64,000 nucleotides of DNA. It comes from Patescibacteria group bacterium (GTDB lineage: Bacteria; Patescibacteriota; Patescibacteriia; JACRDY01). This document shows positions 4,441-42,816 of the stretch, one piece after another. How positions within the stretch are numbered: the first letter of the stretch is position 1; every line of letters begins with the position of its first letter. The stretch is from contig JBAZFH010000001.1 in NCBI GenBank assembly GCA_041653535.1, forward strand, positions 150,175 through 214,174, read 5' to 3'. The notes beneath the pieces are model-generated. The model made no database searches, had not been told where the DNA came from, and was given only the letters and a program-made list of their open reading frames with translations. The position numbers were made by a program, and so were the translations under genes.

Positions 4441-4477
4441 TAATAGTATCTTTTTTTTACGTATCTAGCGTTTATTT

Positions 4478-5035: not shown

Positions 5036-5036
5036 T

Positions 5037-18605: not shown

Positions 18606-18622
18606 GATTAAAATAAAAAATC

Positions 18623-19975
18623 ATGACAGATTTTAGCTTAACAGATTATCAAATATTGGAACAATTCCGTCGCGAGACAGACGAGATTTTAGTTACCAAT
18701 AATTTACGCGATGCGGTTAATTGCCTTACCACACTGCAAAAGACTATGGCTTATGACACAAAAATAAAGGATTACCCTGACATACTGGTTGAATATAATA
18801 AAATATTGAATAAACTGCGTTTAGTTGCTTTTGCTTCACTGGACTGGAACGAAGCTTTGTCTTTTTTGAAGAATAATTTTTTGGTTGCCCTGGAAAACAA
18901 GGAATTTATTGATCTAACCGATAAAATACGCAGCAAACTTGTTACTGTTCCGACGTTAGAGGAGAGAGATAACTATCGGATGCGTTTGCGTCGGGCGCTG
19001 ACACAAAACGGGGAAAGAATTACCTTTAAACCGTTAAAAGTAGGTGATCAGACTCAAGATCCGACAGTCGCCAACTGGCTCAAATTGTATTTGGGATCAT
19101 TGGGAGTTGAGTTGGTTAATCGCGTGACTTATCAGGGTTGGTTGTCACAAGAACAAAATATTCAGCAGTTAACGGAAGAAGAAAAGGAGAGAATAAAATA
19201 TCTTTTTGAAGTATATGAAGAATTAAAACTATCTTCCGTTTCAGTCGAAGGCTGCGAAGAAACTTTTGTTATCGATGAAGATACTGACACTCCTTTGGTG
19301 CTTTATCGCGGTAAAATAGAATCGGCTCTGCCACCGCAAGAAGACATTGATTTACTGAAAAAAATCGAAGCTGTTTTAAGCGGCAAACCAGTATCATTAT
19401 CCGCCCCAACAGGCGCGCCGTCACAGCCAGCCGTTATCTCGGCACCGATACCAGCAGTAGCAAAACCGGCAACGTCAGCTATTGATCGTGATGAGATAAT
19501 CCGTAAATATGAAGGTGATGTTAAAGAAAACAGAAGTATTGAAGACAGGATGACTCAATTTACCAAGACAACTGGCGGTAAGCAAAGAGAACTGGCAAAT
19601 AGTTTGAATTTGCTTTTGACCGGTGCTGCGCCAGATAAACTAGATATTATCGCTATCCTTTATATTTTAGCGAAAAAAAATGCGATGGAAGATTTGATTA
19701 AAGATGATGATCGTTTTTACAAGCTGGTTGAACAGGATCTGACCAGACGAGGCGGTAAACAACAACTTAATGATTTTAAGATGTATCCGACAGCACCCCA
19801 ATCTATTCGATATTTTCTTGAAGTTTTATTGCAGCACAAACTAAGGCTGTCAGAGGGTGAAGCGGCAAAGTGGGGGTTGCATATTGTTAATATTTTGAAA
19901 AAATCCGGCAATGAAAAATACGGAAAAATCGCTTATTTTGATTTGGAAGCAGGAGATTTTCGTTGGCAAAAATAG
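18623..19975 (+). CDS. hypothetical protein (T4SS-cluster associated)
   Basis: 450-aa soluble ORF in operon context with 4-17 nt spacing. No recognisable motifs. Confidence 0.5.
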   Translation: MTDFSLTDYQILEQFRRETDEILVTNNLRDAVNCLTTLQKTMAYDTKIKDYPDILVEYNKILNKLRLVAFASLDWNEALSFLKNNFLVALENKEFIDLTDKIRSKLVTVPTLEERDNYRMRLRRALTQNGERITFKPLKVGDQTQDPTVANWLKLYLGSLGVELVNRVTYQGWLSQEQNIQQLTEEEKERIKYLFEVYEELKLSSVSVEGCEETFVIDEDTDTPLVLYRGKIESALPPQEDIDLLKKIEAVLSGKPVSLSAPTGAPSQPAVISAPIPAVAKPATSAIDRDEIIRKYEGDVKENRSIEDRMTQFTKTTGGKQRELANSLNLLLTGAAPDKLDIIAILYILAKKNAMEDLIKDDDRFYKLVEQDLTRRGGKQQLNDFKMYPTAPQSIRYFLEVLLQHKLRLSEGEAAKWGLHIVNILKKSGNEKYGKIAYFDLEAGDFRWQK

Positions 19976-20084
19976 GTTTGCAGTGTTAGATCGTGAAAAC
20001 GACGGAGTAAATGGCGCAAAAAGGCATTATTATTACCCTTGCTTTTTTTGCTCTTGCGCTCTTGTCTTTTAAAAACAAGCTATT

Positions 20085-21248
20085 ATGGTAGTAACTAATA
20101 TACAAGATGAAATTTTGGTCAAAGACAGCGGCGGTAATTTTTCTGTTTTAGTTGATCAATCAAATGTCGGTTACGATGCTGTTGGAGGGTCGGCAATCAC
20201 TCCGGTATTAACCGAAGACAATTTTGATTTTTCAGCATTAATTGATAAAATAAAGGGGCAGTTTAATCTAGGCTGGAAAGACGAAGTGTTGGACCGACGC
20301 TTGTATAATATTATTATTGCCATGGTGCGCGAAGTACGCAATGATATCCAGACCAAAGACGTTATGGTCAAAAGTGTTGAAGTAGGCGGGTTGGGTTTGG
20401 AGCCTATCATTGCCGATCAGGTGATTGCGGAGGTAAAAAAAACAGCGCGACATCCAATTAAGGTAAAAGAAATGGGCAGAAAAGTTTTAAGCATGGTAAC
20501 GGCAAAAACACCGTCACATGTTTTTTCTCGTCAGGAGCTAGACCATGAGATTGCTCCACCACCACCAACTGTTGTAGTTCCAACAAAAGCAGAACAGATT
20601 AGACCAATATCGCCGCTTGCGCCGAAGCCGCCAGTGCAGTCTGTCACTTATGTTGAAAAAAATTTTTTGCCAAAAAAATCAGTACCAAGGATAGAGGAGA
20701 TAAAAAAAGAAGCAAGTATCAGTAATACGCCAAAACCAACTGCCGAACACCATCTGTCGTCAAAAGCGAAACCGTTTATGGACAGTAAGCCGCCTTTTAA
20801 GATTGATTTTGGGGTAAAAACTAAGGGTCGTAATTTTGACGGTTTAGCGTCCGCACCGCAGGCAAGAGTGGTAATGCCAAATCGAGGGGAAAAAATAACA
20901 GATATTAGAGTTCCTCAAAAAAAATTAGTTGGTCCGCTGGAAGAGCTGCAGGGGTTTCGTGTCGCCGATTTTCGTCGGCTTGACCTTGATCCGCAGAAAG
21001 CGATTTTAAAAATAAAAGAAAAAATTGATTTACTCGGCAGAGAGTCTTTTAGCAAGAGGATTGAGGGCAAAAATGCTTGGCAGCAAAGTGAAGTTAACCG
21101 TCTTTATTTGGCATTGGGAAAGGCAAGTATCGAGCAAGGCAGGTCGCTAGCTGATATTATAAAAGAAAGGTCTTTAAAACAAGAACCGACGTTAAAACCA
21201 GAAGAATTCATCGCCTTGGTCAAATTAAATCAAATTTTAGAAGATTAG
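20085..21248 (+). CDS. hypothetical protein with Pro/Lys-rich central linker (T4SS-cluster associated)
   Basis: 387-aa ORF. Central PPPPTVVVPTKAEQIRPISPLAPKPP low-complexity linker. Stop overlaps the start of the PrgI-like gene. Confidence 0.5.
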   Translation: MVVTNIQDEILVKDSGGNFSVLVDQSNVGYDAVGGSAITPVLTEDNFDFSALIDKIKGQFNLGWKDEVLDRRLYNIIIAMVREVRNDIQTKDVMVKSVEVGGLGLEPIIADQVIAEVKKTARHPIKVKEMGRKVLSMVTAKTPSHVFSRQELDHEIAPPPPTVVVPTKAEQIRPISPLAPKPPVQSVTYVEKNFLPKKSVPRIEEIKKEASISNTPKPTAEHHLSSKAKPFMDSKPPFKIDFGVKTKGRNFDGLASAPQARVVMPNRGEKITDIRVPQKKLVGPLEELQGFRVADFRRLDLDPQKAILKIKEKIDLLGRESFSKRIEGKNAWQQSEVNRLYLALGKASIEQGRSLADIIKERSLKQEPTLKPEEFIALVKLNQILED

Positions 21249-21249
21249 T

Positions 21250-21717
21250 ATGGCTCATCAGTTTTTGGTGCCACAATTCATCGACGTCGAGCCAAAAATT
21301 ATCGGTCCGATAACGGTACGGCAGTTTATTTTGATGGTAATCGCCATGGTGATAATTTTTATATTTTATAAATTTTCCACTTTTTGGACTTTTATTATCG
21401 CTACGGTTTTGATTTTAGGATTGTTTGGGGTTTTGGCCTTTGCCAAAATTAACGGTCGACCGTTTCATTATTTTATTTTAAATATCGTTGAAACATTAAA
21501 GCGTCCTCGACTGAAGGTTTGGGACAAAACATTGGATATGGAGGAAGTAAAAGCATTAATGGCTTATGGGACTCAAATAAAAAAGGTTGAACAAATAGCT
21601 AAAAAAGAGCCGTTAGCAGAGTCGCATTTGGAAGAACTGTCTTTGATTGTTAATACCGGCGGCGCCTATCAGTCTAGTGAATTAGATTTAAATTATGACA
21701 CCAGAAAAGAAAAATAA
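21250..21717 (+). CDS. PrgI/TcpE-family (VirB3-like) small membrane protein
   Basis: The N-terminus VPQFIDVEPKIIGPITVRQFILMVIAMVI matches the PrgI-family signature (vP.di..e.ki.G.t.RQ). It has two TM helices and lies immediately upstream of VirB4. Confidence 0.55.
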   Translation: MAHQFLVPQFIDVEPKIIGPITVRQFILMVIAMVIIFIFYKFSTFWTFIIATVLILGLFGVLAFAKINGRPFHYFILNIVETLKRPRLKVWDKTLDMEEVKALMAYGTQIKKVEQIAKKEPLAESHLEELSLIVNTGGAYQSSELDLNYDTRKEK

Positions 21718-22372
21718 AAAAGCTTCAACCAGAAAAGCGGTTCCGATCGGGGAAATCCGCAACGATACTTTAGTAATGAAGGATGGTACTTTGCGTGCCG
21801 TTTTGATGGTTTCGAGTATTAATTTTGCTCTAAAATCAGCTGATGAGCAACAGGCGATCATCTCTGCCTATATGCAATTTTTGAACTCTATTACTTATCC
21901 AATCCAGATAGTGATCCAATCGCGTCGGATTAATATCGATAAATATTTGGAAAAGTTGCAGAAGATGGAAAAAGAGCAAGTAAATGAATTACTTAAGATT
22001 CAAATTGTCGATTATCGCAAATATGTTTCCGAGTTGGTCGAATTAGGCGATATTATGACTAAAAAGTTTTATATTGTCATACCTTACAATCCACTTTCAG
22101 ATAAGCAAAAATCTTTTTTTTCTCGATCAAAAGATTTGCTTTCGCCAAAAACTATTATCAGCTTAAGTGAGAAAAAGTTTTTCGAAAGGGAAAAGGAGTT
22201 ATCCCAGCGTGTATCTCATGTCGCTTCAAGTCTGGGTAGTATCGGTTTAGCGGTCACTCGCGTTGATACGCAGGGTTTAATAGAATTGTTCTATAATTCA
22301 TACAATCCTGACGTGGCAGAGCATGAGAGAATGGTCGATGTGAACAAGATTCGTTTCGATAATATAACCTAA
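21695..22372 (+). CDS. VirB4/CagE/TrbE N-terminal domain protein (separate ORF)
   Basis: LVMKDGTLRAVLMVSSINFALKSADEQQAIISAYMQFLNSITYPIQIVIQSRR matches the VirB4 N-terminal domain pattern (KDGS..R...G.D..S..E..L..LN.aLrrL....v.rR). It ends in TAA 5 nt before the ATPase ORF, in a different frame. Confidence 0.65.
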   Translation: MTPEKKNKKASTRKAVPIGEIRNDTLVMKDGTLRAVLMVSSINFALKSADEQQAIISAYMQFLNSITYPIQIVIQSRRINIDKYLEKLQKMEKEQVNELLKIQIVDYRKYVSELVELGDIMTKKFYIVIPYNPLSDKQKSFFSRSKDLLSPKTIISLSEKKFFEREKELSQRVSHVASSLGSIGLAVTRVDTQGLIELFYNSYNPDVAEHERMVDVNKIRFDNIT

Positions 22373-22377
22373 AAAAC

Positions 22378-24213
22378 ATGGCAATTATTAAAGAGAAAAA
22401 AACACTTTCCCAAGAGGTGGAAAGCAGTAAGGAAGTCTTGCAAGAAGAGCAGCGCTATCGAGCGGGGACCATTTCCGTTATTGATTTAATAGCGCCGGCG
22501 GCAATGGATGTTCAACCTACTTATTTGCGTCTAGGAACAAGGTTCGCGAGAACTATTTTTGTTGTTAGCTATCCTCGTTATATCGGTATTGGTTGGTTTT
22601 CTCCGATTATAAACTTTAACCATCCCCTGGATGTTTCGATGTTTTTTTATCCGATAAAGGCCGCTGCTATTTTAAAAGATCTGAAAAAAAGAGTCGGTAA
22701 TCTGGAGGCGGAAATAATGGCTGATCGCGACAAAGGGGCTCCGCGCGATCCGATAAAAGAAACGGCTTTGCAGGATATAGAAAAGTTAAGAGATGATTTA
22801 ACTCAAGGCATAGAACACTTTTTCCAATTTGCTTTGTATGTTACTATTTACGCGGAAACAAAAGAGGAATTAGATGATTTAACCGGAGACATAGAAGACG
22901 TTTTTGGTTCTCGTCTGGTTTATTCGCGAAAAGTTTTATATCAAGCTGAGCAGGGTTTTAACTCGACATTGCCTTTTGGTCAAGATGAGTTGGCAATATT
23001 TTTTAACATGAATACCTCTCCCTGTGCCTCGTCATTTCCTTTTATTTCTTTTGAACTTTCTTCCAACGACGGCATCATGTATGGTATTAATCGCCATAAT
23101 AATAGTTTAATTATTTTTGATCGATTTTCTTTACAGAATGCCAACATGGTCGTTTTTGCCACTTCTGGCGCTGGTAAAAGTTATACGATAAAATTAGAGG
23201 TTTTGCGTAGCTTAATGTTTGGTATCGATGTTATTATTATTGATCCGGAAAAAGAGTACCTGCATCTTTGCGAGGCTGTGGGCGGCACTTATATCAATAT
23301 CTCCCTAGCTTCAAAAAGTAAAGTTAATCCTTTTGATTTGCCACGACCGATGGAAAAAGAGTTTAGCGGCGAAGACATTATTCGTTCGGCGGTTATCACT
23401 TTGAAAGGTTTAGTCAAATTAATGATTAGCAAGCTAAATTCTTCGGAAGATTCGGTGATGGACCGGGCGTTGCTAGAAACTTATGCTAAAAAAGATATTA
23501 CTCCTGATGCTAATTTAGCTGAAGTTGAGCCGCCGATTATGCAGGATTTAGTGGATATTTTAGAGGGGATGGAAGGCGGTGCCGATTTGGCTCAAAGATT
23601 GAAAAAATATACCGAAGGCACTTTTTCCGGGTTTTTGAACAATCCGACTAATGTTGATATGGATAACCAGTTGGTTTGTTTTTCGGTTCGCGACCTAGAG
23701 GATGAATTACGACCAATAGCCATCTATAACTTAGTAAACTATATCTGGAACGTTGTTCGTTCAGAGAGAAAAAAGAGGATTTTAGTTATCGACGAAGCTT
23801 GGTGGTTGATGCAAAACGAGGATTCGGCTAAATTTATTTTCGCTCTAGTTAAACGTTGCCGCAAATATTATTTGGGAGTAACTACTATTACTCAGGATGT
23901 GAACGATTTTTTACTCTCGCCATACGGTCAGGCAATAGTCAATAATTCGGCTTTACAACTGTTAATGAAACAATCGCCGGCAGCGATTGATCGGGTAAAA
24001 AATACGTTTTTATTAACTGACGGTGAAAAATATTTATTATTAGAATGTGGTGTAGGTGAAGGAATATTTTTTGCTGGCAATAAACACGCGGCGATTCAGG
24101 TGGTCGCTTCTTACGCTGAGGATCAACTGATTACTACTGACCCGCGGCAGTTGTTAGAAATTGAAGCGGCAAAAAAAGAGTTTGAAGCAGCGGGAGAGAC
24201 CGCATTACAGTAA
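22378..24213 (+). CDS. VirB4-family T4SS ATPase (PrgJ/TrbE-like), C-terminal ATPase portion
   Basis: Walker A FATSGAGKSY, the hallmark Walker B VIDEAWW, and RKYYLGVTTITQDVNDF (VirB4 motif). Confidence 0.85.
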   Translation: MAIIKEKKTLSQEVESSKEVLQEEQRYRAGTISVIDLIAPAAMDVQPTYLRLGTRFARTIFVVSYPRYIGIGWFSPIINFNHPLDVSMFFYPIKAAAILKDLKKRVGNLEAEIMADRDKGAPRDPIKETALQDIEKLRDDLTQGIEHFFQFALYVTIYAETKEELDDLTGDIEDVFGSRLVYSRKVLYQAEQGFNSTLPFGQDELAIFFNMNTSPCASSFPFISFELSSNDGIMYGINRHNNSLIIFDRFSLQNANMVVFATSGAGKSYTIKLEVLRSLMFGIDVIIIDPEKEYLHLCEAVGGTYINISLASKSKVNPFDLPRPMEKEFSGEDIIRSAVITLKGLVKLMISKLNSSEDSVMDRALLETYAKKDITPDANLAEVEPPIMQDLVDILEGMEGGADLAQRLKKYTEGTFSGFLNNPTNVDMDNQLVCFSVRDLEDELRPIAIYNLVNYIWNVVRSERKKRILVIDEAWWLMQNEDSAKFIFALVKRCRKYYLGVTTITQDVNDFLLSPYGQAIVNNSALQLLMKQSPAAIDRVKNTFLLTDGEKYLLLECGVGEGIFFAGNKHAAIQVVASYAEDQLITTDPRQLLEIEAAKKEFEAAGETALQ

Positions 24214-24871: not shown

Positions 24872-25525
24872 ATGAAGAAAATCAGATTAAAAGCAAATTT
24901 TTTACGAGACATTGTTTTTCCTAAAAACTGTCTGGGTTGTGCCAAAGAGGGGTGCTATATTTGTCCTCGGTGCCGAAACATGATCAAAATAGCCAGAAAC
25001 GATTTTATTGATTTTCCGGGAAAAAGATTTTTGGATCGAGTAGTGGTAACGGCTGATTATAATGATGAAATTTTACAACGAGCGATTCATTGTCTAAAAT
25101 ATCAATTTGCTACGGATGTAGCAGAGGAACTTGTCTCTTTGGTATCAGCAGATAAAATACCTTTATCTTGGAAGCACTGCGTTTTATTGCCGATTCCTTT
25201 GCACAAAAAAAGGGAACGATTACGAGGATTTAACCAAGCTGAACTTATTGCTATATTTTTATCCGAGCGTTTTGGTTTGTATTATAGAAATGATATTTTG
25301 AGTAGAATAAAATATCGTGTTCCGCAGATGTCTTTAGGTAGAAGCGAGAGGTTAAAAAATATCAAAGACATATTTTTTGTAGATAAAGACAATCTTTGCG
25401 GAATAAAAAACGTCGTTTTGGTTGACGACGTGGTTACGACGGGAGCTACTTTAAACGAAGCGGCAGAAGTTTTGAAAAAAAATGGTGTAGAAAATGTTGA
25501 GGCGATAGTACTTGGTCATGGATAA
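24872..25525 (+). CDS. comFC: ComF-family phosphoribosyltransferase-domain protein (ComFC)
   Basis: N-terminal Cys4 zinc finger (CLGCAKEGCYICPRC) and the PRTase motif VVLVDDVVTTGATL. Confidence 0.8.
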   Translation: MKKIRLKANFLRDIVFPKNCLGCAKEGCYICPRCRNMIKIARNDFIDFPGKRFLDRVVVTADYNDEILQRAIHCLKYQFATDVAEELVSLVSADKIPLSWKHCVLLPIPLHKKRERLRGFNQAELIAIFLSERFGLYYRNDILSRIKYRVPQMSLGRSERLKNIKDIFFVDKDNLCGIKNVVLVDDVVTTGATLNEAAEVLKKNGVENVEAIVLGHG

Positions 25526-25585
25526 AAAAACTCGCTATGGGCGAGATGAGTAAAAAAAGATATTTTTTAGTTGATTTGAAAGAAA

Positions 25586-25672
25586 CGGAAGGGGAGAGAT
25601 TCGAACTCTCGGTCCGCGTAAACGGACGACGGTTTTCAAGACCGTTCCCTTAAACCACTCAGGCACCCTTCC
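25586..25672 (-). tRNA. tRNA-Ser (anticodon UGA)
   Basis: Cloverleaf on the minus strand: GGAAGGG acceptor, anticodon loop cuUGAaa, long variable arm, T-loop GTTCGAATC. Confidence 0.8.
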
Positions 25673-25743
25673 AAGTGTATTAAAATTTAAAATAGTAGTG
25701 GCGTTCACTTTTGCCATTCGAATCTTTAATCTTCACGGAAAAC

Positions 25744-25838
<95 letters not shown>

Positions 25839-25889
25839 TAATAAATTCGGTTTTAGTATAATATTTTTATAAATAAAAGTCAATAATAT

Positions 25890-26378
25890 ATGGCAGAGAA
25901 CACAAAGTATGGCAAAGAGATGATATCTTGGGATTTTCCCGAGTTTATTCCGCATGAACGTACTCGCGGTTGGTATGTGGCAGTGATAATCATCGCAGCG
26001 TTATTGTTGCTTTATGCCATTATTACCGCTAATTTTTTGTTTGCTATCATTGTTATTATCGTGGCGGTGATTATGTTTTTTAAAACATCGAATACGGCTA
26101 TGAACGTTATTTTTTCTATTTATGAAGATGGAGTCAGAGTGGGGGATAAATTTTATGATTTTAAGGAAATAAAAGACTTTTACATTATCTATGAACCGCC
26201 GGAAGCAAAAAATATTTATTTTAATTTTAATAGTTTGCTTCAGCCACGTTTGCAGATACCATTATTAGAACAAGATCCTGTGAAAGTGAGGGAGATTTTG
26301 CGCGATTATATTGAAGAAGATTTGGATCGGAGTGATGAGCCGTTTTCTGATGGTATTGGCAGAATATTTAAAATATAA
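25890..26378 (+). CDS. hypothetical membrane protein (2 TM, C-terminal soluble domain)
   Basis: ORF between tRNA genes. Hydrophobic helices VAVIIIAALLLLYAIITANFLFAIIVIIVAVIMFF. Confidence 0.45.
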   Translation: MAENTKYGKEMISWDFPEFIPHERTRGWYVAVIIIAALLLLYAIITANFLFAIIVIIVAVIMFFKTSNTAMNVIFSIYEDGVRVGDKFYDFKEIKDFYIIYEPPEAKNIYFNFNSLLQPRLQIPLLEQDPVKVREILRDYIEEDLDRSDEPFSDGIGRIFKI

Positions 26379-26443
26379 TAACATTCGGGATCTGGACAAG
26401 ATGAAAAATATTTGTTAAACTGTTGCTACCTACTATTACCCGT

Positions 26444-26515
26444 GCCCTCATCGTTTAACGGATAGGACGCGGGATTGCGGATCCCGTAATTGAGGTTCGA
26501 TTCCTCATGAGGGCG
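26444..26515 (+). tRNA. tRNA-Arg (anticodon GCG; isotype call tentative)
   Basis: 72-nt cloverleaf: acceptor GCCCTCA/TGAGGGC, anticodon stem CGGGA/TCCCG with loop uuGCGga, T-arm TGAGG-TTCGATT-CCTCA. It is flanked by an extended inverted repeat (CTACCTACTATTACCC / GGGTAGTGGCAGGTAG). Confidence 0.6.
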
Positions 26516-26579
26516 AGGGTAGTGGCAGGTAGAATCGGAAATTGCGAGATGGGATAGAAAAATTATTTGATCCCAACTC

Positions 26580-29268: not shown

Positions 29269-30534
29269 TTATTTACAGGCAGTACCAGTTGCGCCACCGG
29301 CGGAATTCCAGCGAGCGGTGCCATATTCGAAATGCCACCATTCCGCACAATATCTTACCCAACCCGCTTCATGCATTATGTCTTCCAATATCTTTTTTTC
29401 CGCGGAATTTGGCGGGCGTGTACATTTTTCTTCGCAATAACATTCGTTGCCTTTGCATAAATTAACATCTACTGCTCCGCCAGTAACATGAGGGGCGTTA
29501 CAGCTGGGTTTAGCGACTCTTTTTCTTGCCGCTTGTTCGTTGCCGTATTTTATTATGGCACGCTGAAAAAGTTTATTTTGATGTTCTACCGTTCTTACGG
29601 CTGAAACAATATTAAGTCGATAGCCTTTAGCGGCGGCGTTGTTACTCGCAGCTGTAAGATAGGGGATGACTTGTGTTAACAGTCTATTATCCCCAGATGT
29701 GGCGGAAAGATTGCTATTAGTTGGTATGGCGGTTAGTTGAGAACTTTGGGCGCAGCCGGCGGCAAAAACTCCCGCTGGTGCATTGGCTGGAGGTGGGGCA
29801 TTGGGATCAACTGGATTATCTGGATTCTGTTCGGGAAAATATTGATTAGCAACCTCGTCACCGACTTCATCCATTTCGAGATTTACCGGTTCCACGTACG
29901 GCACTTTGATCGGTCGTAAATACACCAGTTCGGGATTAACCAGGTAAAGTATGGAATAACTGCCTAAAGCCAGTATTAGTCCTACGATTGAACCAATAAT
30001 ATATCCTTTTGCCGCTGTTATTCTTCCCGAATCCCCGCCTGAAGTCATCCAGATAAACCCGCCAATTACTATCATTACTACGGCTAATACCGCTGCTGCT
30101 CCCACTCCGAATTTATATAACCCACCTACCATCTGGGCGATCCAGGGTATGTAGTAATATCTGCTGCCTTTTGTTTCGCCTTGAATTTCCACTTCTTGAT
30201 CAAGGGTAACGATATTGCCGATAGTAGGTAAGCTGGGGGTTATTAGCGATTTGGTTTCATTAGTCGATTGTGAATTTATTTTGTTGTTATATTCCTCGAT
30301 TTCTTTTTTTAGCGTCTCATCGCCGCATGGCTTACTATGAAGTTTGCAGTTTGTCGCAGGGCAAATACCCGATTCGTCTGGAGCTTTAAGTTCCAGCTCC
30401 CCGGTAGGTTTATTTGGGTCTTTAGGACAAGCACAGCAGCTATTAGTCGGATCGGCTGCCAGACTTATAGCCGGATAAAAGATGATTAAAATCAGGATTA
30501 GTAAAATAATTTTAAATAAGATATTTTTTTTCAT
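29269..30534 (-). CDS. secreted Cys-rich protein with TrbC/VirB2-like pilin hairpin fused to C-terminal VanY/M15 D-Ala-D-Ala carboxypeptidase domain
   Basis: Signal peptide. Two hydrophobic helices separated by SGGDSGRITAAKG (TrbC/VirB2 topology). C-terminal SAVRTVEHQ...Q, HVTGGAVD (HxxGxAxD) and EWWH motifs of peptidase M15B. Confidence 0.65.
   Translation of the reverse strand: MKKNILFKIILLILILIIFYPAISLAADPTNSCCACPKDPNKPTGELELKAPDESGICPATNCKLHSKPCGDETLKKEIEEYNNKINSQSTNETKSLITPSLPTIGNIVTLDQEVEIQGETKGSRYYYIPWIAQMVGGLYKFGVGAAAVLAVVMIVIGGFIWMTSGGDSGRITAAKGYIIGSIVGLILALGSYSILYLVNPELVYLRPIKVPYVEPVNLEMDEVGDEVANQYFPEQNPDNPVDPNAPPPANAPAGVFAAGCAQSSQLTAIPTNSNLSATSGDNRLLTQVIPYLTAASNNAAAKGYRLNIVSAVRTVEHQNKLFQRAIIKYGNEQAARKRVAKPSCNAPHVTGGAVDVNLCKGNECYCEEKCTRPPNSAEKKILEDIMHEAGWVRYCAEWWHFEYGTARWNSAGGATGTACK
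29884..30159. repeat. 276-bp perfect direct repeat (copy A) shared by tandem paralogs; copy B at 31174-31449
   Basis: Base-by-base identical blocks 1,290 nt apart. A second shared ~38-nt block lies at 30211-30248 / 31498-31535. Confidence 0.9.
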
Positions 30535-30549
30535 ATTTTAATAGAATGA

Positions 30550-31815
30550 TTATTCTATTCTATAACCCATTTCAATACATTTTCTTATTTGACAGGCAGC
30601 TGTTTTGTCACGCGTACGTTGGTAGTCATCAATATCTACATCTTGGCAGCCGTTATCTTGCATATCTTGCGTTGGTATCCAGTTTGGATCTAACTTATCG
30701 TATTCTTCATTACTACACCAAGCGCAGCCATCGGCAGAGCCGTTGGCATCCATAAAAACGCACATACCTTTTGCTTTTGCGCTATCAAGTTGATTTATTA
30801 TTTCACAAGCTTCTTGAGATTCTTCGTCGGTTATTGTCGGATTAGGGGGCGGTAAATTTACCCAGTTTGAAGCAGAACCGCTGTCATCGATGCGGTTGCA
30901 TGCAAGTTCCGGTGAAGCCTGGCAGGAAAAAGCAATCAGATTCATTTTTAAGGCATAGCTTTTTTCTGCGCTTGGTGCGGGTAAACACATTTGGTTTCCT
31001 CCGGTACAATAACTGCCAACGCAAGGATCACCACTGGTTAAGCTCGCGCCTATTATATATGGTGTACCGCAAATTAAATTTTCTCCGGCTGGTATTTCTT
31101 TAGAGGTTTGTTCGTAAGTAAATGTTTTTTCTCCGTTCGGTGCTTCAGTGGGACAAAGTATTCCCGATAGTTCTACCGGTTCCACGTACGGCACTTTGAT
31201 CGGTCGTAAATACACCAGTTCGGGATTAACCAGGTAAAGTATGGAATAACTGCCTAAAGCCAGTATTAGTCCTACGATTGAACCAATAATATATCCTTTT
31301 GCCGCTGTTATTCTTCCCGAATCCCCGCCTGAAGTCATCCAGATAAACCCGCCAATTACTATCATTACTACGGCTAATACCGCTGCTGCTCCCACTCCGA
31401 ATTTATATAACCCACCTACCATCTGGGCGATCCAGGGTATGTAGTAATAACGATTAGGGGCTTCACCCGCAACTTCTACACTTGAATCAAGAGAGATGAT
31501 ATTGCCGATAGTAGGTAAGCTGGGGGTTATTAGCGGTTTGGTTTCTTCCTTATCATCACTTTTGTTTGCAGCGTTTATTTTGTCTTGAACTTCTTTGCTG
31601 CTGCAAGATCCGTCCCATGGTTTAGGACAGGTTCTTCCCTGTAAGTAAGGCGTGCAAGTGCCGTTGGCATCCGGCGCTCCAACCGCTTCTAGTTTGTCAC
31701 TGCCAGCTGTCTGACAGACACAGCATTGTTCGGCGGCTGAAGAAGGGATTAAGGGAAAAATAAGAAATAATAAAAGTAAAACAAATACTGTTGTTATTTT
31801 TTTATTCCTTTTCAT
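30550..31815 (-). CDS. paralogous secreted Cys-rich TrbC/VirB2-like pilin-fold protein (different C-terminal Cys-rich domain)
   Basis: Shares a 92-aa core that is 100% identical at nucleotide level (31174-31449 vs 29884-30159) with the upstream paralog. Signal peptide. C-terminal domain with ~20 Cys. Confidence 0.6.
   Translation of the reverse strand: MKRNKKITTVFVLLLLFLIFPLIPSSAAEQCCVCQTAGSDKLEAVGAPDANGTCTPYLQGRTCPKPWDGSCSSKEVQDKINAANKSDDKEETKPLITPSLPTIGNIISLDSSVEVAGEAPNRYYYIPWIAQMVGGLYKFGVGAAAVLAVVMIVIGGFIWMTSGGDSGRITAAKGYIIGSIVGLILALGSYSILYLVNPELVYLRPIKVPYVEPVELSGILCPTEAPNGEKTFTYEQTSKEIPAGENLICGTPYIIGASLTSGDPCVGSYCTGGNQMCLPAPSAEKSYALKMNLIAFSCQASPELACNRIDDSGSASNWVNLPPPNPTITDEESQEACEIINQLDSAKAKGMCVFMDANGSADGCAWCSNEEYDKLDPNWIPTQDMQDNGCQDVDIDDYQRTRDKTAACQIRKCIEMGYRIE
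31174..31449. repeat. 276-bp perfect direct repeat (copy B)
   Basis: Identical to 29884-30159. Confidence 0.9.
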
Positions 31816-31851: not shown

Positions 31852-33090
31852 TTATTTTAATTTAATTTGATTGATTGTTCCCGAGATATTATCTTTGAAA
31901 TAAAGATAGTTTCCATCGTCACTGACTTGTAGATCCGTAGCCGTATAAAGACCGCTGGGAATCGCGACTAGGCTTTTGGTGTTGGTATAGATATCGATTT
32001 TATAAAAATCATCCGGAGTACTATTGGCAATTTCCGGCATTAGACCGGCGCCGGTAGGCAAATTTTGTGGCACGGCGCAATAAACAGTTCTTTTGTCAGC
32101 GAAAGTACATTTGTCCGCCCAAGTGTTTAGCTCAAGATTGACGCGATAACTTGCCATATCAGAACCTTTGCCGGTGACTGTCCAAAGAGTTGGTTTGAGG
32201 TCGGAATCCTGAGAATAAACACTGTAAAAAAGAAATTCTCCGTCTGGTGACCATTTACCCTGATAGCCGCGTCCCTCAACGATGGTACTGGGAAAATTTT
32301 CGTTATTTTGTCCGATAAACATCAGGTACTGCCTTTCCATGTCTATCGATTCGGTATAGTTACCGACTATTTGTTGATCAGGTGACCAGTTAATATAAAT
32401 ATTTTTAGTGTTGTCGCCCACGGAAGTGATGTGTTTTACTCCGGATCCATTTTCGTTGGCAACGGCAATCCAACGGTTTTCTCGATCAACACCCATGCTT
32501 TTAAAAGCTATTTTGGTGCTATCGGAGGAAAAATCAAATTCCTCCCACTGTTTGGGTAGACTAATCTGTTCTTGGGTGCCAAAATTTAAATAAACAGTAG
32601 AGTTGTCGGCGAACTTCATAATCACCTTATTTTTATCTGGTGACCAAGATATGTTTTCAACTCCTTTGAATACTTTGTCAGACAAAGCGGTTTTACTGCC
32701 ATCAGTGTTGTAGCGATAAAATTTTCCGTCATAAGGATTGTAGGCATATAAAGCTTTGCCGTCAGCAGACATAGTGGGAGAGACAACAGTATCTTCGTTT
32801 ATTTTTTGCACTTGGGTAAAACCGCCTTTTGCCACCTCGGACGTCGCTGCCGGCGCCGCAGTGTTGATGTTTTCCGCCGGTATTAGCTTACCATTAACAT
32901 TTATATATGTTGGTTTACCGGTATTGATATTAGCCGTCGGCAATCCGTTGACCGTAATTATTTCGTTGGCATTGGGAGTAATGACAGTCGGTGCCTGTCG
33001 TAAAAATAAAAAATAGAGTAAAAAGCCAAGCAGAACGGTAATTAAAACAAACGCGACAATATAAATTATTTTTTTTGTTTGGTCAGACAT
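31852..33090 (-). CDS. TolB-like PD40 beta-propeller protein with N-terminal membrane anchor
   Basis: N-terminal TM IIYIVAFVLITVLLGFLLYFLFL. Repeated PD40 signatures WSPDKNKV, WSPDQQIV, WSPDGEFLFY. Confidence 0.65.
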   Translation of the reverse strand: MSDQTKKIIYIVAFVLITVLLGFLLYFLFLRQAPTVITPNANEIITVNGLPTANINTGKPTYINVNGKLIPAENINTAAPAATSEVAKGGFTQVQKINEDTVVSPTMSADGKALYAYNPYDGKFYRYNTDGSKTALSDKVFKGVENISWSPDKNKVIMKFADNSTVYLNFGTQEQISLPKQWEEFDFSSDSTKIAFKSMGVDRENRWIAVANENGSGVKHITSVGDNTKNIYINWSPDQQIVGNYTESIDMERQYLMFIGQNNENFPSTIVEGRGYQGKWSPDGEFLFYSVYSQDSDLKPTLWTVTGKGSDMASYRVNLELNTWADKCTFADKRTVYCAVPQNLPTGAGLMPEIANSTPDDFYKIDIYTNTKSLVAIPSGLYTATDLQVSDDGNYLYFKDNISGTINQIKLK

Positions 33091-33122: not shown

Positions 33123-34277
33123 TTATTCAGATAATCCGATCGCGTTTTTGAGTGCCGACCAGGTGGTGTCAAAAGGTGAGGCGATAATAGCAATAATAAT
33201 AATAATTCCAAACAAAGCCAGTAAAAGCAGAATCCCGACGACGACGCAACCGCAGCCTTCGGCTATAGCAAAGGCATTTATCGTTCCACCGATAGCTTTT
33301 TCCCGCAGTGCCTTCGGCACCTTTTTCATCTTAGCCTTCATGGTGGGTGGTACAATAATTTCTCCTGGTGATCCAAAAATTTTACTATGTCCAAAAAAAT
33401 AAGCAATATTGTGAAATAAGATATAGGCATAAGATAATCCGATCGTCGGAATAAGCTGCAGCCAGCAGCTTTTGAGCAGCGATGACGTGACGATTTGGGT
33501 TCCAGCCAATCCTTTTCCTGGTTCATCATCCATTCCTTCTTTATCATTATCTTCTTTGTCGCCTTCTTTTTTTTGGGAATTAGTATCTTGTTTTTTTTGG
33601 TCTTTTAGGTCTCTTTTATTCTGGTTTTCTTCACCTTCTTTTTCTCCTTCTTCACCTTCTTTTTCTCCTTCTTCACCTTCTTTTTCTCCTTCTTCACCTT
33701 CTTTTTCTCCTTCTTCACCTCTTGGTTCGTCGGTCGGTTGCTTGGGATTTTGTTTTTCCTCATTTTCTTCCGGTTGTTTTTCAGTCGGTGTGGGAGGCGT
33801 ATTTAGTTGTGGTTGTTCGGTTGCCTGCTCTGCTTGGTTGATAGGAGAGGTAGCGGTTTTTGATTCCGGCTCTGCTGGCGAGCCAACGTTTTCGGAAAAA
33901 CCAGAGTTAGCACCAGTGGTTTTTTTTTCAGTTATTGGTTCAGTATTTATCGTTGTCATGGTCGGGGATGGCGACGGGGGAATATTTACTCTGCCTTGAG
34001 CGGACGGTGCGTTATTTTTAAAATCATTAGTTGCTTGTTTTATTCCGTTTTTACCACTATTTGTTGTTTTTGGTTTTACTTCGTTTGCCGCTATTATCGT
34101 TTTTTGTTTTTTTTCATCTCTTAAGTCGTTAATAAGCTGTATTGCCAGACTGCGAGAAAATTCGTTGAAAACGTTTTTGTTGGAAAAAGGTGATTTTTTC
34201 TTATTAACAAAGGCAAAAACATTTTGAAGAAATGTTGGATCTTTTAGCCTATCTATTATTTTTTTATCTATATTCAT
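33123..34277 (-). CDS. acidic low-complexity protein with (EGEKEGE)n tandem repeat and C-terminal double TM anchor
   Basis: 21-nt tandem repeat at 33630-33720 encoding EEGEKEG x4-5. P/T/E-rich disordered region. Two C-terminal hydrophobic helices. Confidence 0.5.
   Translation of the reverse strand: MNIDKKIIDRLKDPTFLQNVFAFVNKKKSPFSNKNVFNEFSRSLAIQLINDLRDEKKQKTIIAANEVKPKTTNSGKNGIKQATNDFKNNAPSAQGRVNIPPSPSPTMTTINTEPITEKKTTGANSGFSENVGSPAEPESKTATSPINQAEQATEQPQLNTPPTPTEKQPEENEEKQNPKQPTDEPRGEEGEKEGEEGEKEGEEGEKEGEEGEKEGEENQNKRDLKDQKKQDTNSQKKEGDKEDNDKEGMDDEPGKGLAGTQIVTSSLLKSCWLQLIPTIGLSYAYILFHNIAYFFGHSKIFGSPGEIIVPPTMKAKMKKVPKALREKAIGGTINAFAIAEGCGCVVVGILLLLALFGIIIIIAIIASPFDTTWSALKNAIGLSE
33630..33720. 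repeat. 21-nt tandem repeat x~4.4 (ttcaccttctttttctccttc) inside CDS
   Basis: The TTCACC anchor recurs at 33630, 33651, 33672, 33693 and 33714. Confidence 0.85.
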
Positions 34278-34285
34278 GGTATTTT

Positions 34286-34663
34286 TTAATACCTAGCTAT
34301 TGTTTTATCAATGCTATCGGCGACCAAAACTAGAACTTTTTTGTATTCTTCGGCTAGGCGTGTTTTGAGTTGTTTTTTTCTATTTTCATCCCTTTCATAA
34401 CGTTCAAGTATTGCTATTTCCAACATCAGTTTTTCACTCAGACTTTCGACTAGCGATTGGTAGGCTGTTTCCATGGTGGTGTAACTGCTTTTCCTAGCTA
34501 ATAAGCGATCGATATCGTCGGTCTTTTTGTCTATTTGTTGATTAATTATTTTTACGCGTTCGAACAATGGCGTTGGTGATCCGGTAGCGGCTCTTTTTTG
34601 AGTATATAAACTACGCCTAAAATCGTGTTCCTTTAGGTTGTCAGGTGTTTGGAAATCGGTCAT
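34286..34663 (-). CDS. hypothetical protein (125 aa, coiled-coil-like C-terminus)
   Basis: ORF directly upstream of the acidic-protein gene, on the same strand. No motifs recognised. Confidence 0.4.
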   Translation of the reverse strand: MTDFQTPDNLKEHDFRRSLYTQKRAATGSPTPLFERVKIINQQIDKKTDDIDRLLARKSSYTTMETAYQSLVESLSEKLMLEIAILERYERDENRKKQLKTRLAEEYKKVLVLVADSIDKTIARY

Positions 34664-39493: not shown

Positions 39494-40849
39494 ATGCCTA
39501 TTTCTGCCAGCGTTTTTAAGGCCTACGACATTCGAGGTTTATACCCTCAGGAGATTGACGAGCAGGGAGCTTTTTTGATCGGACTTGCCTTTGCCAAAGT
39601 CTTCCAACCCAGGCGAGTGGTGGTCGGTCGCGACGTTAGAGATTGCAATGCCAAGATGCAAGCAGAATTGATCCGCGCTTTAGTAGAATCTGGAGTCGAT
39701 GTGGTAGATATCGGGCAAATACCAACTGACATGATTTATTTTGTTGTTGGCAAATTTGGTTTTGATGGCGGTATAGTTGCCTCGGCTTCACATAATCCGG
39801 TTGGTTACGGCGGTATTAAGATGGTGGAAAAAGACTCTAAGCCGGTTTTTGCCGAGCACAAAATGCCGGAGATCCGCGATTTGGTTATGTCGGGAACACT
39901 TGCGTCACCAGGTTTATCGGGAAAGGTGGAGGAAAAAGACTATACCAGCGAATATTTTGACTTCATCTTGTCATTTATCGATCCGGAAGTTTTAAAGCAA
40001 CAAAAAGTTGTTGCTAACGGTAACTTTGGTCCAAGTGGCAAGCTATTAGAAAAATTAGCCAAGGAACGCGGTCTGCCGCTGGAGATTGTTCCTCTAAATC
40101 TTAATCCGGACGGCAATTTTCCTAAAGGCCGACCCGACCCAATGGTGCCGGAAAACAGGGGAGAGTTTACTGCCTTGGCTAAAAGCAGCGGTGCCGACTT
40201 TGGTGTTTCTTGGGATGCTGACGGTGATCGTTGCTTCTTCTGTGATGGCAATGGTAATTTTTATGAGCCATGTTATATTACGGCATTTTTGGTTGAAGAA
40301 ATGCTGAAACAGTACCCCGGTGCCAAAACACTTTATGATATTCGTTATGTTTGGGCGGTAAAGGCAGCGGCAGAGGAGCATGGCGGGACGGCGCTGCCAA
40401 CACGTGTTGGTCGATCGTTTATCATGGATATAATGCGTCGGGAAGACGTTGTTTTTTGCGGTGAGTCCAGCGGTCATTATTATTTCAAAGATAATTATTA
40501 CTCAGATAACGGCATGATACCGCTACTCTTGATCTGGCAGGCTGTCTCTGTTAGCGGTAAGAAATTAGGCGAATTGCTGGAAAATTACACTAAACGCTTT
40601 TTTGTTTCCGGAGAATTTAATACTACGGTTAGCGACGTTAATGCTAAAATTAGCCAAATAGCAGCAAGATATGCGGACGGGCAGCAAGATTTTACTGATG
40701 GAGTTTCGATTGCTTATGACGATTGGCGTTTCAATCTCAGGGGTTCTAATACTGAGCCATTATTGCGATGCAATATCGAGGCGAAAAGCGAGGAACTGGT
40801 TATCAGTAAAAAGCAAGAGTTGTTAGATTTATTAGCAAAAAATGACTAG
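39494..40849 (+). CDS. phosphoglucomutase/phosphomannomutase-family (alpha-D-phosphohexomutase) enzyme
   Basis: Active-site serine loop ASASHNP, KAYDIRG N-terminal motif, four-domain length. Confidence 0.8.
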   Translation: MPISASVFKAYDIRGLYPQEIDEQGAFLIGLAFAKVFQPRRVVVGRDVRDCNAKMQAELIRALVESGVDVVDIGQIPTDMIYFVVGKFGFDGGIVASASHNPVGYGGIKMVEKDSKPVFAEHKMPEIRDLVMSGTLASPGLSGKVEEKDYTSEYFDFILSFIDPEVLKQQKVVANGNFGPSGKLLEKLAKERGLPLEIVPLNLNPDGNFPKGRPDPMVPENRGEFTALAKSSGADFGVSWDADGDRCFFCDGNGNFYEPCYITAFLVEEMLKQYPGAKTLYDIRYVWAVKAAAEEHGGTALPTRVGRSFIMDIMRREDVVFCGESSGHYYFKDNYYSDNGMIPLLLIWQAVSVSGKKLGELLENYTKRFFVSGEFNTTVSDVNAKISQIAARYADGQQDFTDGVSIAYDDWRFNLRGSNTEPLLRCNIEAKSEELVISKKQELLDLLAKND

Positions 40850-40910
40850 ATAGACTTTAGGAATTATTGCTCTTTTTCTTTTACCAAAATTACATTACAA
40901 TATAGGGGTT

Positions 40911-41690
40911 ATGATTGGTATATTTGATTCTGGGGTAGGTGGGTTGACTGTTGTTAGAGAGGTGTTAAAACAACTGCCCAATCAGCCGATTATCTATTTT
41001 GGCGATACGGCTCGGACGCCTTATGGCAACAAAGGTCCCAAAACTATTATCCGGTATTCGCAAGAGAATACCGACTTTTTGTTATCTAAGGGCGCCAGTG
41101 TTATTGTTATTGGTTGCAACACGGCATCAGCTGTTGCTGTTGAAGCTTTGCGGGAAAAGCATCCTGACGTGCCGATTTTGGAAGTAATCACGCCAGCTGT
41201 CAGTCGAGCGGTTGCAGTTACTAAAAACAAGAAAATTGGAGTTATTGGTACTCGGGCAACGATTGCTTCGCAGATTTATACCAAGAAAATTCAGGAGATT
41301 GATTCCAGTATTAAGGTATTTTCCGCTGCTTGTCCGCTCTTTGTTCCGCTGGTGGAAGAAAACTGGCTGACACGACCCGAAACAAAAATGATAGCTCGCA
41401 GATATTTAACTGATTTTAAGAATGTTGGTATTGATACGTTAATACTTGGCTGTACGCATTATCCCTTGTTAAAAGAGGTGATTTCCGCTAAAATAGGAAA
41501 AAGAGTGGTACTGGTTGATTCAGCAGAAGAAGTGGTTAAGGAAATTACGAATTACGAATTACGAATTACGAATAAGGAGGGTGATTCGAAGTTTTATTTT
41601 AGCGATTTGACCGAGCAAGTGGGTAAAATCAGCGCCAGATGGCTCGGTGGAAAAGTTGACCTTGAAGAAACAAATTTTGAAACAAAATAA
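40911..41690 (+). CDS. murI: glutamate racemase
   Basis: IGIFDSGVGGLTV, FGDTARTPYG, VIGCNTAS, LGCTHYPLL motifs. Confidence 0.9.
   Translation: MIGIFDSGVGGLTVVREVLKQLPNQPIIYFGDTARTPYGNKGPKTIIRYSQENTDFLLSKGASVIVIGCNTASAVAVEALREKHPDVPILEVITPAVSRAVAVTKNKKIGVIGTRATIASQIYTKKIQEIDSSIKVFSAACPLFVPLVEENWLTRPETKMIARRYLTDFKNVGIDTLILGCTHYPLLKEVISAKIGKRVVLVDSAEEVVKEITNYELRITNKEGDSKFYFSDLTEQVGKISARWLGGKVDLEETNFETK
41545..41572. repeat. heptanucleotide tandem repeat (ATTACGA)x4 inside murI 3' coding region
   Basis: attacgaattacgaattacgaattacga is translated as ITNYELRITN. Confidence 0.85.
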
Positions 41691-41700
41691 TTTTTATTTT

Positions 41701-42816
41701 ATGATTTTTACGATAATAATTTTTGTCGCCGTCCTAGCGATATTGGTTTTGGTTCACGAGATCGGTCATTTTATTACTGCGCGTAAATTTGGTTGCGCCG
41801 TAGAAGAATTTGGTATTGGTTTTCCGCCGCAGGCAAAAAAATGGAAAAGCAAAAAAACCGGTATTAATTATTCTCTCAACTGGATTCCTCTTGGCGGTTT
41901 TGTTAAAATTAAAGGCGAAGACGGGGAAAATCGACAAGAAAACGACAGCTTTGGCAGTAAAAAGGTTTGGCAGCGGGCGATTATTTTGTCTTCGGGAGTG
42001 CTGATGAATATTGTTTTGGCAATAGTTTTACTTTCCATTGGTTTTGGTATTGGACTACCTTCAGCGCTACCTGATGATTTATCCGATCTGGGTCGAGCGC
42101 ATGTCAAGGATGCTAAAATTCAAATTTATGCCATATCGGACGGTTCGCCGGCAGCAACAGCTGGTCTTCAAAGCGGTGATGCTTTGGTTAGTATTGACGG
42201 TAATAGTTTAAATAAGCTTGAAGACGTTCAGTCTTATATAGCCGGTAAAGACGGTCAGGAAATAAATTTGGCTTTACAGCGAGGGCAAGAAGATGTAAAC
42301 GTAAAAGTTGTTCCGGTTTTTCGCGAGGAAATAGGCAAGGCTGGTATTGGTGTTGCATTAGCTCGAACCGGAATTGTGTCTTACCCTTGGTATTTGGCGC
42401 CGATAAAAGGAGCGGAAGCGACTTTTAGTTTATTTTGGGCGATTGTCGTTGCTTTTTATACGTTGATTAAAAATTTAGTAACTGGTATTCCGGTTGGTGC
42501 CGATGTCGCCGGTCCGGTGGGTATTGCGGTAATGACTGGTCAGGTGGCGCGCATGGGTTTTGTTTATTTATTACAATTCACTGCACTGCTTTCAGTCAAT
42601 CTAGCAATTATCAATTTTTTACCTTTGCCAGCGCTTGACGGTGGAAGAATTCTGTTTTTGATTGTCGAAAAGATTCGTCGCCGTCCTATTCGTCAAGAAG
42701 TTGAGGCAGTGGTGCATAATATTGGTTTTATGTTACTGATAGGCCTGATGATTTTTGTTACTTTTCGTGACGTGATAAAATGGGGTGGAGGATTTTTTAG
42801 CAAAATATTTGGATAA
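41701..42816 (+). CDS. rseP: RIP metalloprotease RseP (site-2 protease, M50, PDZ-containing)
   Basis: HEIGHFITAR HExxH motif, PDZ region, and C-terminal NFLPLPALDGGR (LDG motif). The start at 41701 is preferred over the overlapping 41647. Confidence 0.85.
   Translation: MIFTIIIFVAVLAILVLVHEIGHFITARKFGCAVEEFGIGFPPQAKKWKSKKTGINYSLNWIPLGGFVKIKGEDGENRQENDSFGSKKVWQRAIILSSGVLMNIVLAIVLLSIGFGIGLPSALPDDLSDLGRAHVKDAKIQIYAISDGSPAATAGLQSGDALVSIDGNSLNKLEDVQSYIAGKDGQEINLALQRGQEDVNVKVVPVFREEIGKAGIGVALARTGIVSYPWYLAPIKGAEATFSLFWAIVVAFYTLIKNLVTGIPVGADVAGPVGIAVMTGQVARMGFVYLLQFTALLSVNLAIINFLPLPALDGGRILFLIVEKIRRRPIRQEVEAVVHNIGFMLLIGLMIFVTFRDVIKWGGGFFSKIFG

Follow-up and report, generated by a model that had tools for sequence, protein, structure and literature searches.

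The window analysed here is a 64-kb stretch of chromosomal DNA from a Patescibacteria metagenome-assembled genome (MAG), that of an ABY1-type bacterium of the candidate phyla radiation (CPR); it lies on a contig of 347 kb. Two co-oriented open reading frames (ORFs) of 421 amino acids each, separated by 15 nt on the minus strand, form a tandem pair that is the subject of this work: copy 2, the upstream gene (30550-31815, named 'pilin' at NCBI), and copy 1, the downstream gene (29269-30534, named 'D-alanyl-D-alanine carboxypeptidase family protein'). An original prediction had described them as secreted, Cys-rich proteins sharing a membrane hairpin with an SGGDSGRITAAKG loop, encoded by an identical core; the ORFs, the hairpin with its loop and the Cys-rich domains are all present. 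No further core-bearing ORF was found in the window.

The repeat search detected a 281-nt direct repeat between the two genes (29879-30159 and 31169-31449, 99% identity), plus a second repeat family of 84 nt. The nucleotide alignment delimited a tract of 276 nt identical in both copies (29884-30159 in copy 1 and 31174-31449 in copy 2, minus strand), reproducing exactly the coordinates that had been proposed. The 92 codons of this tract match at all three positions, synonymous sites included, and encode the stretch preceding the first transmembrane helix (TM1), TM1, the cytoplasmic loop SGGDSGRITAAKG, the second helix (TM2) and NPELVYLRPIKVPYVEPV. The additional identical block of about 38 nt announced by the prediction was recovered in the nucleotide alignment as a perfect run of 38 nt (30211-30248 in copy 1 and 31498-31535 in copy 2, minus strand) encoding LITPSLPTIGNI; a diverged segment of 51 nt lies between both runs, resulting in a mosaic pattern. 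Outside the perfect runs the nucleotide identity between the copies was 41%, the random level; the N- and C-terminal domains do differ, as had been claimed.

Copy 1 is composed of a signal peptide (residues 1-26), an N-terminal domain with six cysteines and a CCxC motif (27-96), a conserved pre-core segment (97-108), a two-helix hairpin (approximately 130-199), an NPELV motif, a Pro-rich linker (218-259) and a VanY/LdcB-type M15 peptidase (260-410); copy 2 has the same layout up to its C-terminal domain (residues 216-421, 14 cysteines). The signal peptides of both proteins have an AxA-type cleavage site, and in both copies the LITPSLPTIGNI stretch follows the six-cysteine domain, ahead of the hairpin. 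The hydropathy segments (1-30, 135-168 and 172-201) correspond to the signal peptide and to two hydrophobic helices joined by a short basic loop, and the AlphaFold2 (AF2) model of copy 1 (overall predicted local distance difference test, pLDDT, of 74.7) has helices at 130-164 and 169-199 with a pLDDT above 90. The hairpin core lacks cysteines, and the counts in the outer domains are even (6 + 8 in copy 1, 6 + 14 in copy 2). By topology, both the N- and the C-terminal domains are predicted to lie outside the cytoplasmic membrane.

The C-terminal domain of copy 1 (29305-29757, minus strand; Pfam, PDB sequence matches and Foldseek) scored above the cut-offs for VanY (34.2 bits, cut-off 25) and Peptidase_M15 (29.6 bits, cut-off 27); NCBIfam gave weak VanX/VanY matches and nothing further. 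The M15 residues are present: R314 and Q319 (SAVRTVEHQ); H349 and D356 (APHVTGGAVD); and E398 and H401 (EWWH). The H/D and R/Q residues align with those of BaLdcB (4mph) and are conserved across all the fusion homologs. PDB sequence matches were BaLdcB from Bacillus anthracis (4mph/4jid), YodJ (4ox3) and pneumococcal LdcB (4ox5), and Foldseek retrieved, with a probability of 1.0, VanY (5hnm, E 9e-6), LdcB (4ox3), VanX (1r44), BaLdcB (4mph) and Ply500 (2vo9); the pLDDT of the modelled enzyme domain was approximately 85-94. The scores, the motifs and the predicted fold indicate that this domain, proposed earlier to be D-Ala-D-Ala carboxypeptidase-like, is an intact VanY/LdcB-type M15B zinc peptidase with the LAS fold, predicted to act on peptidoglycan stem peptides. 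The C-terminal domain of copy 2 had no Pfam match, low AF2 confidence and no Foldseek fold match; it is homologous to the C-terminal domains of the proteins P0016 (E 2e-7), P0014 (E 6e-7) and P0045, with a conserved Cys pattern (homologs obtained from the full-length-query search and pairwise BLAST). This type of C-terminal domain is orthologous across four genomes.

The hairpin of both copies matched the Pfam family PF18895 ('T4SS_pilin', T4SS standing for type IV secretion system) over profile positions 12-62 of 71, with 24.5 bits (E 2.9e-5) for copy 1 and 25.5 bits (E 1.4e-5) for copy 2. The same family was matched by 19 of 19 homologs at E<=0.01 (best 1.1e-12), by 99 of the 104 nearest cluster representatives and, with 46.7 bits over positions 2-71, by the ortholog from a Kerfeldbacteria locus (L052). 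Because of these near-threshold scores together with the strong matches of the relatives, both proteins are assigned to the Patescibacteria PF18895 hairpin family. The core profile retrieved 86,278 cluster representatives at E<=0.001 and 683 at E<=1e-30. Some proteins (P0021, P0022, P0024, P0027) harbour 4-17 concatenated pilin-like hairpins in a single chain (1775 aa in P0024); their linkers of 16-44 aa lack signal peptides and often have two cysteines, and the proteins look like 'poly-hairpin' membrane proteins. The Cys-rich N-terminal module is itself a repeatable unit, since a 469-aa protein of another locus (L007:9275-10684, the downstream gene of its pair) has two CCxC modules in tandem, followed by a C39-like papain-fold C-terminal domain.

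The gene directly upstream of copy 2 (31852-33090, minus strand) encodes a partner protein of 412 aa with an N-terminal membrane helix and conserved orthologs; the remainder of the protein shows weak, sub-threshold beta-propeller matches (PD40, prolyl-oligopeptidase N-terminal, Tricorn-like). Using this protein as probe, 80 loci were fetched from species-representative genomes (Falkow-, Buchanan-, Magasanik-, Uhr- and Kerfeldbacteria), and one to four core genes followed the beta-propeller gene directly in 55 of them. The orthologs lying directly upstream of core genes in related loci are 37-56% identical to the window protein, and the syntenic order on homolog contigs was: ClpC, an intervening gene, beta-propeller, core gene(s), glycosylase and/or RecG. 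In 50 of 92 loci (e.g. L052:8216-8950) the beta-propeller and core genes are separated by a gene for a DsbA-like oxidoreductase, which fits disulfide-bonded extracellular domains; the window and its closest relatives have no such gene there, and a search of the whole window gave no DsbA homolog.

The enzyme fused to the core, on the second gene, varied from one of these loci to another: VanY in the window; Amidase_2 in L001; 3D in L005; SLT, plus the C39-like protein, in L007; M23 in L009; Glucosaminidase in L091; and M15_4 in L092. The Pfam census of 71 locus genes gave Amidase_2 (8), VanY (7), SLT (7), Peptidase_C39_2 (6), GDSL (4), M15_4 (2) and M23 (2); the counts rest on Pfam because the phmmer classification of the C-terminal domains was too insensitive (55 of 81 unclassified). 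Among the best 104 single-core matches, the fused domains were Peptidase_C39_2 (9), SLT (9), Amidase_2 (8), M15_4 (8), VanY (8) and M23 (5), and more rarely NlpC/P60 (3), GDSL (3), 3D (3), CHAP (2) and GH18 (1). The fusion of a pilin-type hairpin with a hydrolase, which the prediction had called unusual, is frequent in this clade, with a cell-wall hydrolase in up to about half of the close family members. The border between the core and the variable C-terminal enzyme is sharp and falls right after NPxLV...PYVEPV. The domain shuffling at the core that had been anticipated is borne out by orthologous loci that carry different hydrolases, and the comparison of these sequences indicates that recombination at the core edges has replaced the enzyme payload many times at one locus.

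The cores themselves behaved differently from their flanks. In the five genomes examined first, the two cores were 100, 88, 88, 70 and 69% identical to each other at the nucleotide level, compared to 56-68% with cores elsewhere; within-genome core identities were 100, 94, 89, 87, 87 and 80%, against a between-genome mean of 48.7 (standard deviation 6.2), and 18 of 29 within-locus core pairs exceeded every between-locus comparison. As the ortholog cores of other genomes are only 56-68% identical, neither chance nor purifying selection alone can yield 276 identical positions out of 276. The cores group by genome and the flanks by gene, indicating concerted evolution. The best reading is that gene conversion has homogenised the hairpin core (276 + 38 nt) in the very recent past, as the prediction had put forward: the perfect runs against a background of 41% and the comparative core identities both support it. 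The same homogenisation recurs in related genomes, the window holding the freshest event. Selection also keeps the cores matched, as deduced from the pairs of L013 (3390-5171 and 5253-7004) and L007 (8001-9266 and 9275-10684), with 0-1 amino-acid differences in 71 codons at synonymous divergences (dS) of 0.74 and 0.62, respectively; in these two pairs the matching of the core proteins is maintained without recent homogenisation of the DNA. We are highly confident of the architecture, the enzyme assignment and the gene conversion taken jointly. The original prediction was largely right, with three corrections: the family is PF18895 and not TrbC; the fusion is common in the clade; and the conserved partners are the beta-propeller protein and DsbA.

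The explanation that we favour, and hold to be the probable one overall, is that the pair forms a matched membrane-hairpin module displaying exchangeable wall hydrolases, with the peptidase acting near the T4SS. The hairpin would be a shared anchoring or assembly module, both paralogs fitting into the same membrane oligomer or pilus-like polymer, and we infer that the cores are kept matched because both must fit this same oligomer; the natural proteins with concatenated cores point to an oligomerising hairpin. The exchangeable outer domains would be displayed at the cell surface, where the peptidase would cut peptidoglycan beside the type IV secretion apparatus. Its target could be the cell's own wall, opened for the T4SS with the peptidase as a built-in VirB1 substitute, or the wall of a host, opened at the contact site; we give these two options roughly even weight.

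As for the functional tie of the pair to the T4SS, the balance is about level. VirB4, PrgI and VirB6-like genes lie approximately 5 kb from the pair, no VirB1-type hydrolase was recognisable by Pfam in the T4SS cluster of the window, and most Patescibacteria with VirB2-like genes are reported to have no VirB1 (Quinonero-Coronel et al. 2025, PMC12102498). In the Kerfeldbacteria locus L052, the genes for PrgI, the N-terminal part of VirB4, VirB4, two small proteins, the beta-propeller protein, DsbA and the pilin share one direction and lie 1-18 nt apart, which indicates that the module belongs to a T4SS operon in this locus; the arrangement in L054 and L045 is similar.

A series of observations weighs against the favoured explanation. 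Neither protein reaches the PF18895 gathering score (26.6 bits) on its own. The Pfam check for TrbC (PF04956), the family named in the prediction, gave no match for either protein at E<=1; among the relatives, a weak match was found in 1 of 19 (E 0.01) and in 1 of 104 (E 6.6e-4). The hhalign comparison of the core profile with VirB2 from A. tumefaciens, a weak test given its single-sequence template, resulted in a probability of 2.1%; tblastn with VirB2 in plasmids retrieved close rhizobial relatives only, hence there is no deeper VirB2 profile. Foldseek searches of the hairpin against the PDB, in which short hairpins are poorly resolved, returned generic helical hairpins only (ATP synthase c, AcrA hairpin; E>0.3), VirB2/TraA structures were absent from the 50 fold matches listed, and the core profile gave chance matches only against PDB sequences. 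Of the TrbC/VirB2-like pilin fold that had been proposed, the part that stands is a hairpin of the PF18895 family; 'VirB2-like' is the label of this family in the literature, and it could not be verified here. The genomic context is also equivocal: T4SS genes are adjacent in only three of the inspectable related loci (L052, L054 and L045), the flanks of most being too short to judge; L091 has no T4SS gene within 10 kb; and the strictly conserved neighbours of the core genes are ClpC, the beta-propeller gene and RecG. By our estimate from pilus geometry, a VirB2-type filament could hardly accommodate extra domains of approximately 100 and 200 aa on each of its subunits. LdcB-type enzymes are stem-peptide trimmers that act in wall maturation, not wall lysers, and the peptidoglycan-precursor genes nearby (GlmM-like, MurI) fit a housekeeping role in the wall equally well. 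What speaks against a true pilus in particular is that the extra domains are large, that no VirB2 homology was detected and that the linkage to T4SS genes is patchy.

In the strongest of the alternatives, which we nevertheless regard as rather unlikely, the pair would be housekeeping autolysins remodelling or trimming the cell's own peptidoglycan during growth and division, with the PF18895 hairpin as a mere membrane anchor and no role in secretion or towards a host. The locus lies among ClpC, RecG, LemA/M48, the GlmM-like mutase, MurI and RseP and is conserved across many species, in L091 there is no T4SS gene within 10 kb of it, the fused set (amidase, lytic transglycosylase, M23, M15, NlpC/P60, CHAP, glucosaminidase) is the usual autolysin repertoire, and the wall-maturation function of LdcB-type enzymes points in the same direction. 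However, pure housekeeping predicts one type of enzyme per syntenic position, and the type changes between species-level relatives at one syntenic site; lipase/esterase and papain-like domains are also found among the payloads; the L052 module lies inside a T4SS operon; and the literature presents the family, in name and description, as pilins associated with the T4SS and often encoded near virB4 (PMC12102498).

Two bolder readings give the enzymes a role against the host. In the first, which we consider unlikely, PF18895 hairpins would be a polymerising scaffold, a T4SS-associated pilus or surface array of ABY1-type Patescibacteria armed with enzymes that drill into the host envelope: paralogs with matched cores would co-assemble and display wall-degrading and binding domains, and payload swaps between lineages at the conserved core would create a hot spot resembling that of polymorphic effectors. 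The second, more doubtful still, makes the hairpin a T4SS delivery module (e.g. through membrane extraction by VirB4, as for pilins) of polymorphic effectors whose exchangeable anti-host C-terminal enzymes would be displayed on a pilus or released from it, so as to breach the wall of the host cell. The conserved core with its sharp border to highly variable enzymes would suit such effectors, as would the range of amidases, muramidases, peptidases and lipase-like domains, which parallels known antibacterial effector sets; the variable Cys-rich domain of the partner protein could bind host surfaces, and epibiotic growth of Southlakia requires T4SS and pilin arrays (PMC10633639). Against this reading, the gene directly downstream of the pair encodes a DNA glycosylase and not an immunity-like protein, no release or processing site was identified in the proteins, and the T4SS linkage is patchy.

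It is very improbable that the identical core reflects a very recent duplication of the whole segment or an artefact of assembly or polishing. The contig is metagenome-assembled, no independent assembly of the strain was found, the exact 32-nt core pattern had no match in metagenome contigs, and an exact repeat of 276 nt exceeds typical short reads, and bubble-popping could erase sparse differences; the exactness of the 100% identity is the only feature that assembly could inflate in this way, by the loss of a few single-nucleotide polymorphisms. Against this, the genes are unalignable outside the core (41%), which excludes a recent gene duplication; the direct repeat A-R-B-R-C has a single assembly path, in which the unique B is real coding sequence with orthologs; C-terminal domains of the copy 2 type are orthologous from genome to genome, whereas the cores cluster by genome; and tandem pairs with partly homogenised cores are also seen in related organisms, in independent assemblies that come from several samples and assemblers (L001-L004, L005/6, L007/8, L013, L015). 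Last, a lysis module of prophage origin (an endolysin joined to a holin-like protein with two TM helices), superficially suggested by the two-TM segment with its peptidoglycan hydrolase, by a match of the copy 1 M15 region to a phage tape-measure PHROG and by the Ply500 endolysin as a fold neighbour, was rejected as hardly credible: the hairpin is preceded by a signal peptide that is cleavable and by a large N-terminal domain, the chromosomal locus lies among housekeeping genes and is conserved in more than 80 species, and no phage family was matched by the neighbours or by any other part of the window.

Several known systems resemble the pair. The closest are the VirB2-like pilin arrays of Patescibacteria (PF18895; Wang et al. 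2023, PMC10633639; Quinonero-Coronel et al. 2025, PMC12102498), which share with it the Pfam family, a hairpin with signal peptide, tandem paralogs, a CPR genome and, for the window, T4SS genes approximately 5 kb away. The published arrays consist of divergent paralogs (mean identity 25%, maximum 54%; PMC12102498), in contrast to the window, where the cores are 100% identical at the DNA level and the remainder is unrelated, the proteins reach 421 aa with large Cys-rich N- and C-terminal domains and an M15 peptidase in one of them, and the conserved neighbours are not virB4 but ClpC, the beta-propeller protein and, in many cases, DsbA. No paper on hydrolase fusions was found, the papers citing PF18895 and the relevant reviews describing only divergent VirB2-like arrays and noting that VirB1 is mostly missing; the locus conserved across Falkow-, Magasanik-, Uhr- and Kerfeldbacteria, the exchange of enzymes on the core from species to species and the concerted evolution of the cores are newly found here. 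Canonical TrbC/VirB2 pilins (PF04956; VirB2 from A. tumefaciens) have in common with the pair the signal peptide, two hydrophobic helices, a short charged loop and both ends predicted outside; they differ in the lack of detectable homology or of a specific fold match and in size, the mature proteins here being approximately five-fold larger.

The enzyme of copy 1 shares with VanY/LdcB (MEROPS M15B) an HMM score above the cut-off, the motifs R..Q, H-x6-D and E-x-x-H, and the LAS fold; unlike these enzymes it sits behind a pilin-like hairpin, connected by a Pro-rich linker, and has eight cysteines. T4SS wall hydrolases (VirB1; PrgK of pCF10; TraG of pIP501) are likewise membrane-tethered, peptidoglycan-cleaving enzymes encoded near T4SS genes, and could make a local opening; they are SLT, LytM or CHAP enzymes with a single anchor, whereas the window has an M15 enzyme on a pilin hairpin, of a type interchangeable between species. 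Polymorphic toxins (CdiA-CT, Rhs, MafB) and pilE/pilS recombination also combine a conserved part for assembly or delivery, at which recombination takes place, with a variable C-terminal payload that has a sharp boundary; unlike them, the pair has no immunity gene, known trafficking domain or silent cassettes, and both copies are full-length genes that look expressed.

As this locus shows, a large branch of the 'pilin' family PF18895 is a carrier for interchangeable peptidoglycan hydrolases, adjoining a conserved beta-propeller/DsbA module that is part of a T4SS operon in some lineages, and gene conversion and selection keep its carrier segment matched between paralogs. These proteins are candidates for how ultrasmall epibionts open a cell wall, their own or that of the host, and may explain the reported absence of VirB1 from most Patescibacteria genomes with VirB2-like genes; an armed surface array, if true, would also account for most Patescibacteria T4SS loci having no VirB1 homolog. 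Were the hairpin merely a membrane anchor, the pair would represent a means, specific to the phylum, by which autolysins are tethered, and would cleanly exemplify concerted evolution combined with domain swapping.

The pair is located at the end of a co-directional run of genes encoding LemA, an M48 peptidase, UPF0259, ClpC, two membrane proteins, the beta-propeller protein, copy 2, copy 1 and a methylpurine DNA glycosylase; the latter gene is also found directly downstream in L001, L005 and L009, and no immunity-like gene occupies that position in the window. The scan for promoters and terminators was uninformative, save for one strong promoter-like site upstream of LemA (39486-39458). Two genes (33123-34277 and 34286-34663, both minus strand) lie between ClpC and the beta-propeller gene; a 384-aa protein of this pair of genes combines an acidic (GEEGEKE)n repeat with a hydrophobic C-terminal part, and the hydrophobic part alone is weakly similar in related loci. 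On the strand opposite to the operon (39494-42816, plus strand) are the genes for the GlmM-like phosphohexomutase, the MurI-like glutamate racemase and the RseP-type M50 protease, which also flank L091 and L092.

The T4SS cluster of the window is of the monoderm type (15747-24213, plus strand, assigned by Pfam), approximately 5 kb from the pair, past RecG and three tRNAs, with VirB4 at 7-8 genes from the pair. It includes, all on the plus strand: a VirB6/TrbL-like protein (15747-18605, Pfam); a PrgI/VirB3-like protein (21250-21717, Pfam); the N-terminal part of VirB4 (225 aa, 21695-22372, a weak TraC_F_IV match); and the VirB4 ATPase (611 aa, 22378-24213, Pfam). The split VirB4 recurs in L052 (L052:3075-3758 and 3761-5596), and this conservation indicates that it is not a frameshift artefact. 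An ORF of 2921 aa without Pfam match at E<=0.001 (6956-15721, plus strand) lies directly upstream of the VirB6/TrbL-like gene and may encode a giant surface protein. Between the T4SS cluster and RecG, two tRNA-Ser and one tRNA-Arg (25585-26516) are found where the gene order departs from that of L052; this stretch may be a rearrangement breakpoint. The ComF gene of the window (24872-25525) adjoins VirB4, and in several Falkowbacteria-type loci (L011, L018-L022, L025-L027, L038-L040) a ComF-like phosphoribosyltransferase gene, and no core gene, follows the beta-propeller gene. Many of the MAG records with the CPR-type locus (L012, L016, L019, L022 and others) are titled 'uncultured Gammaproteobacteria bacterium', and others Binatia, Udaeobacter, Vicinamibacterales or Acutalibacteraceae; these titles look taxonomically wrong, or the bins contaminated.

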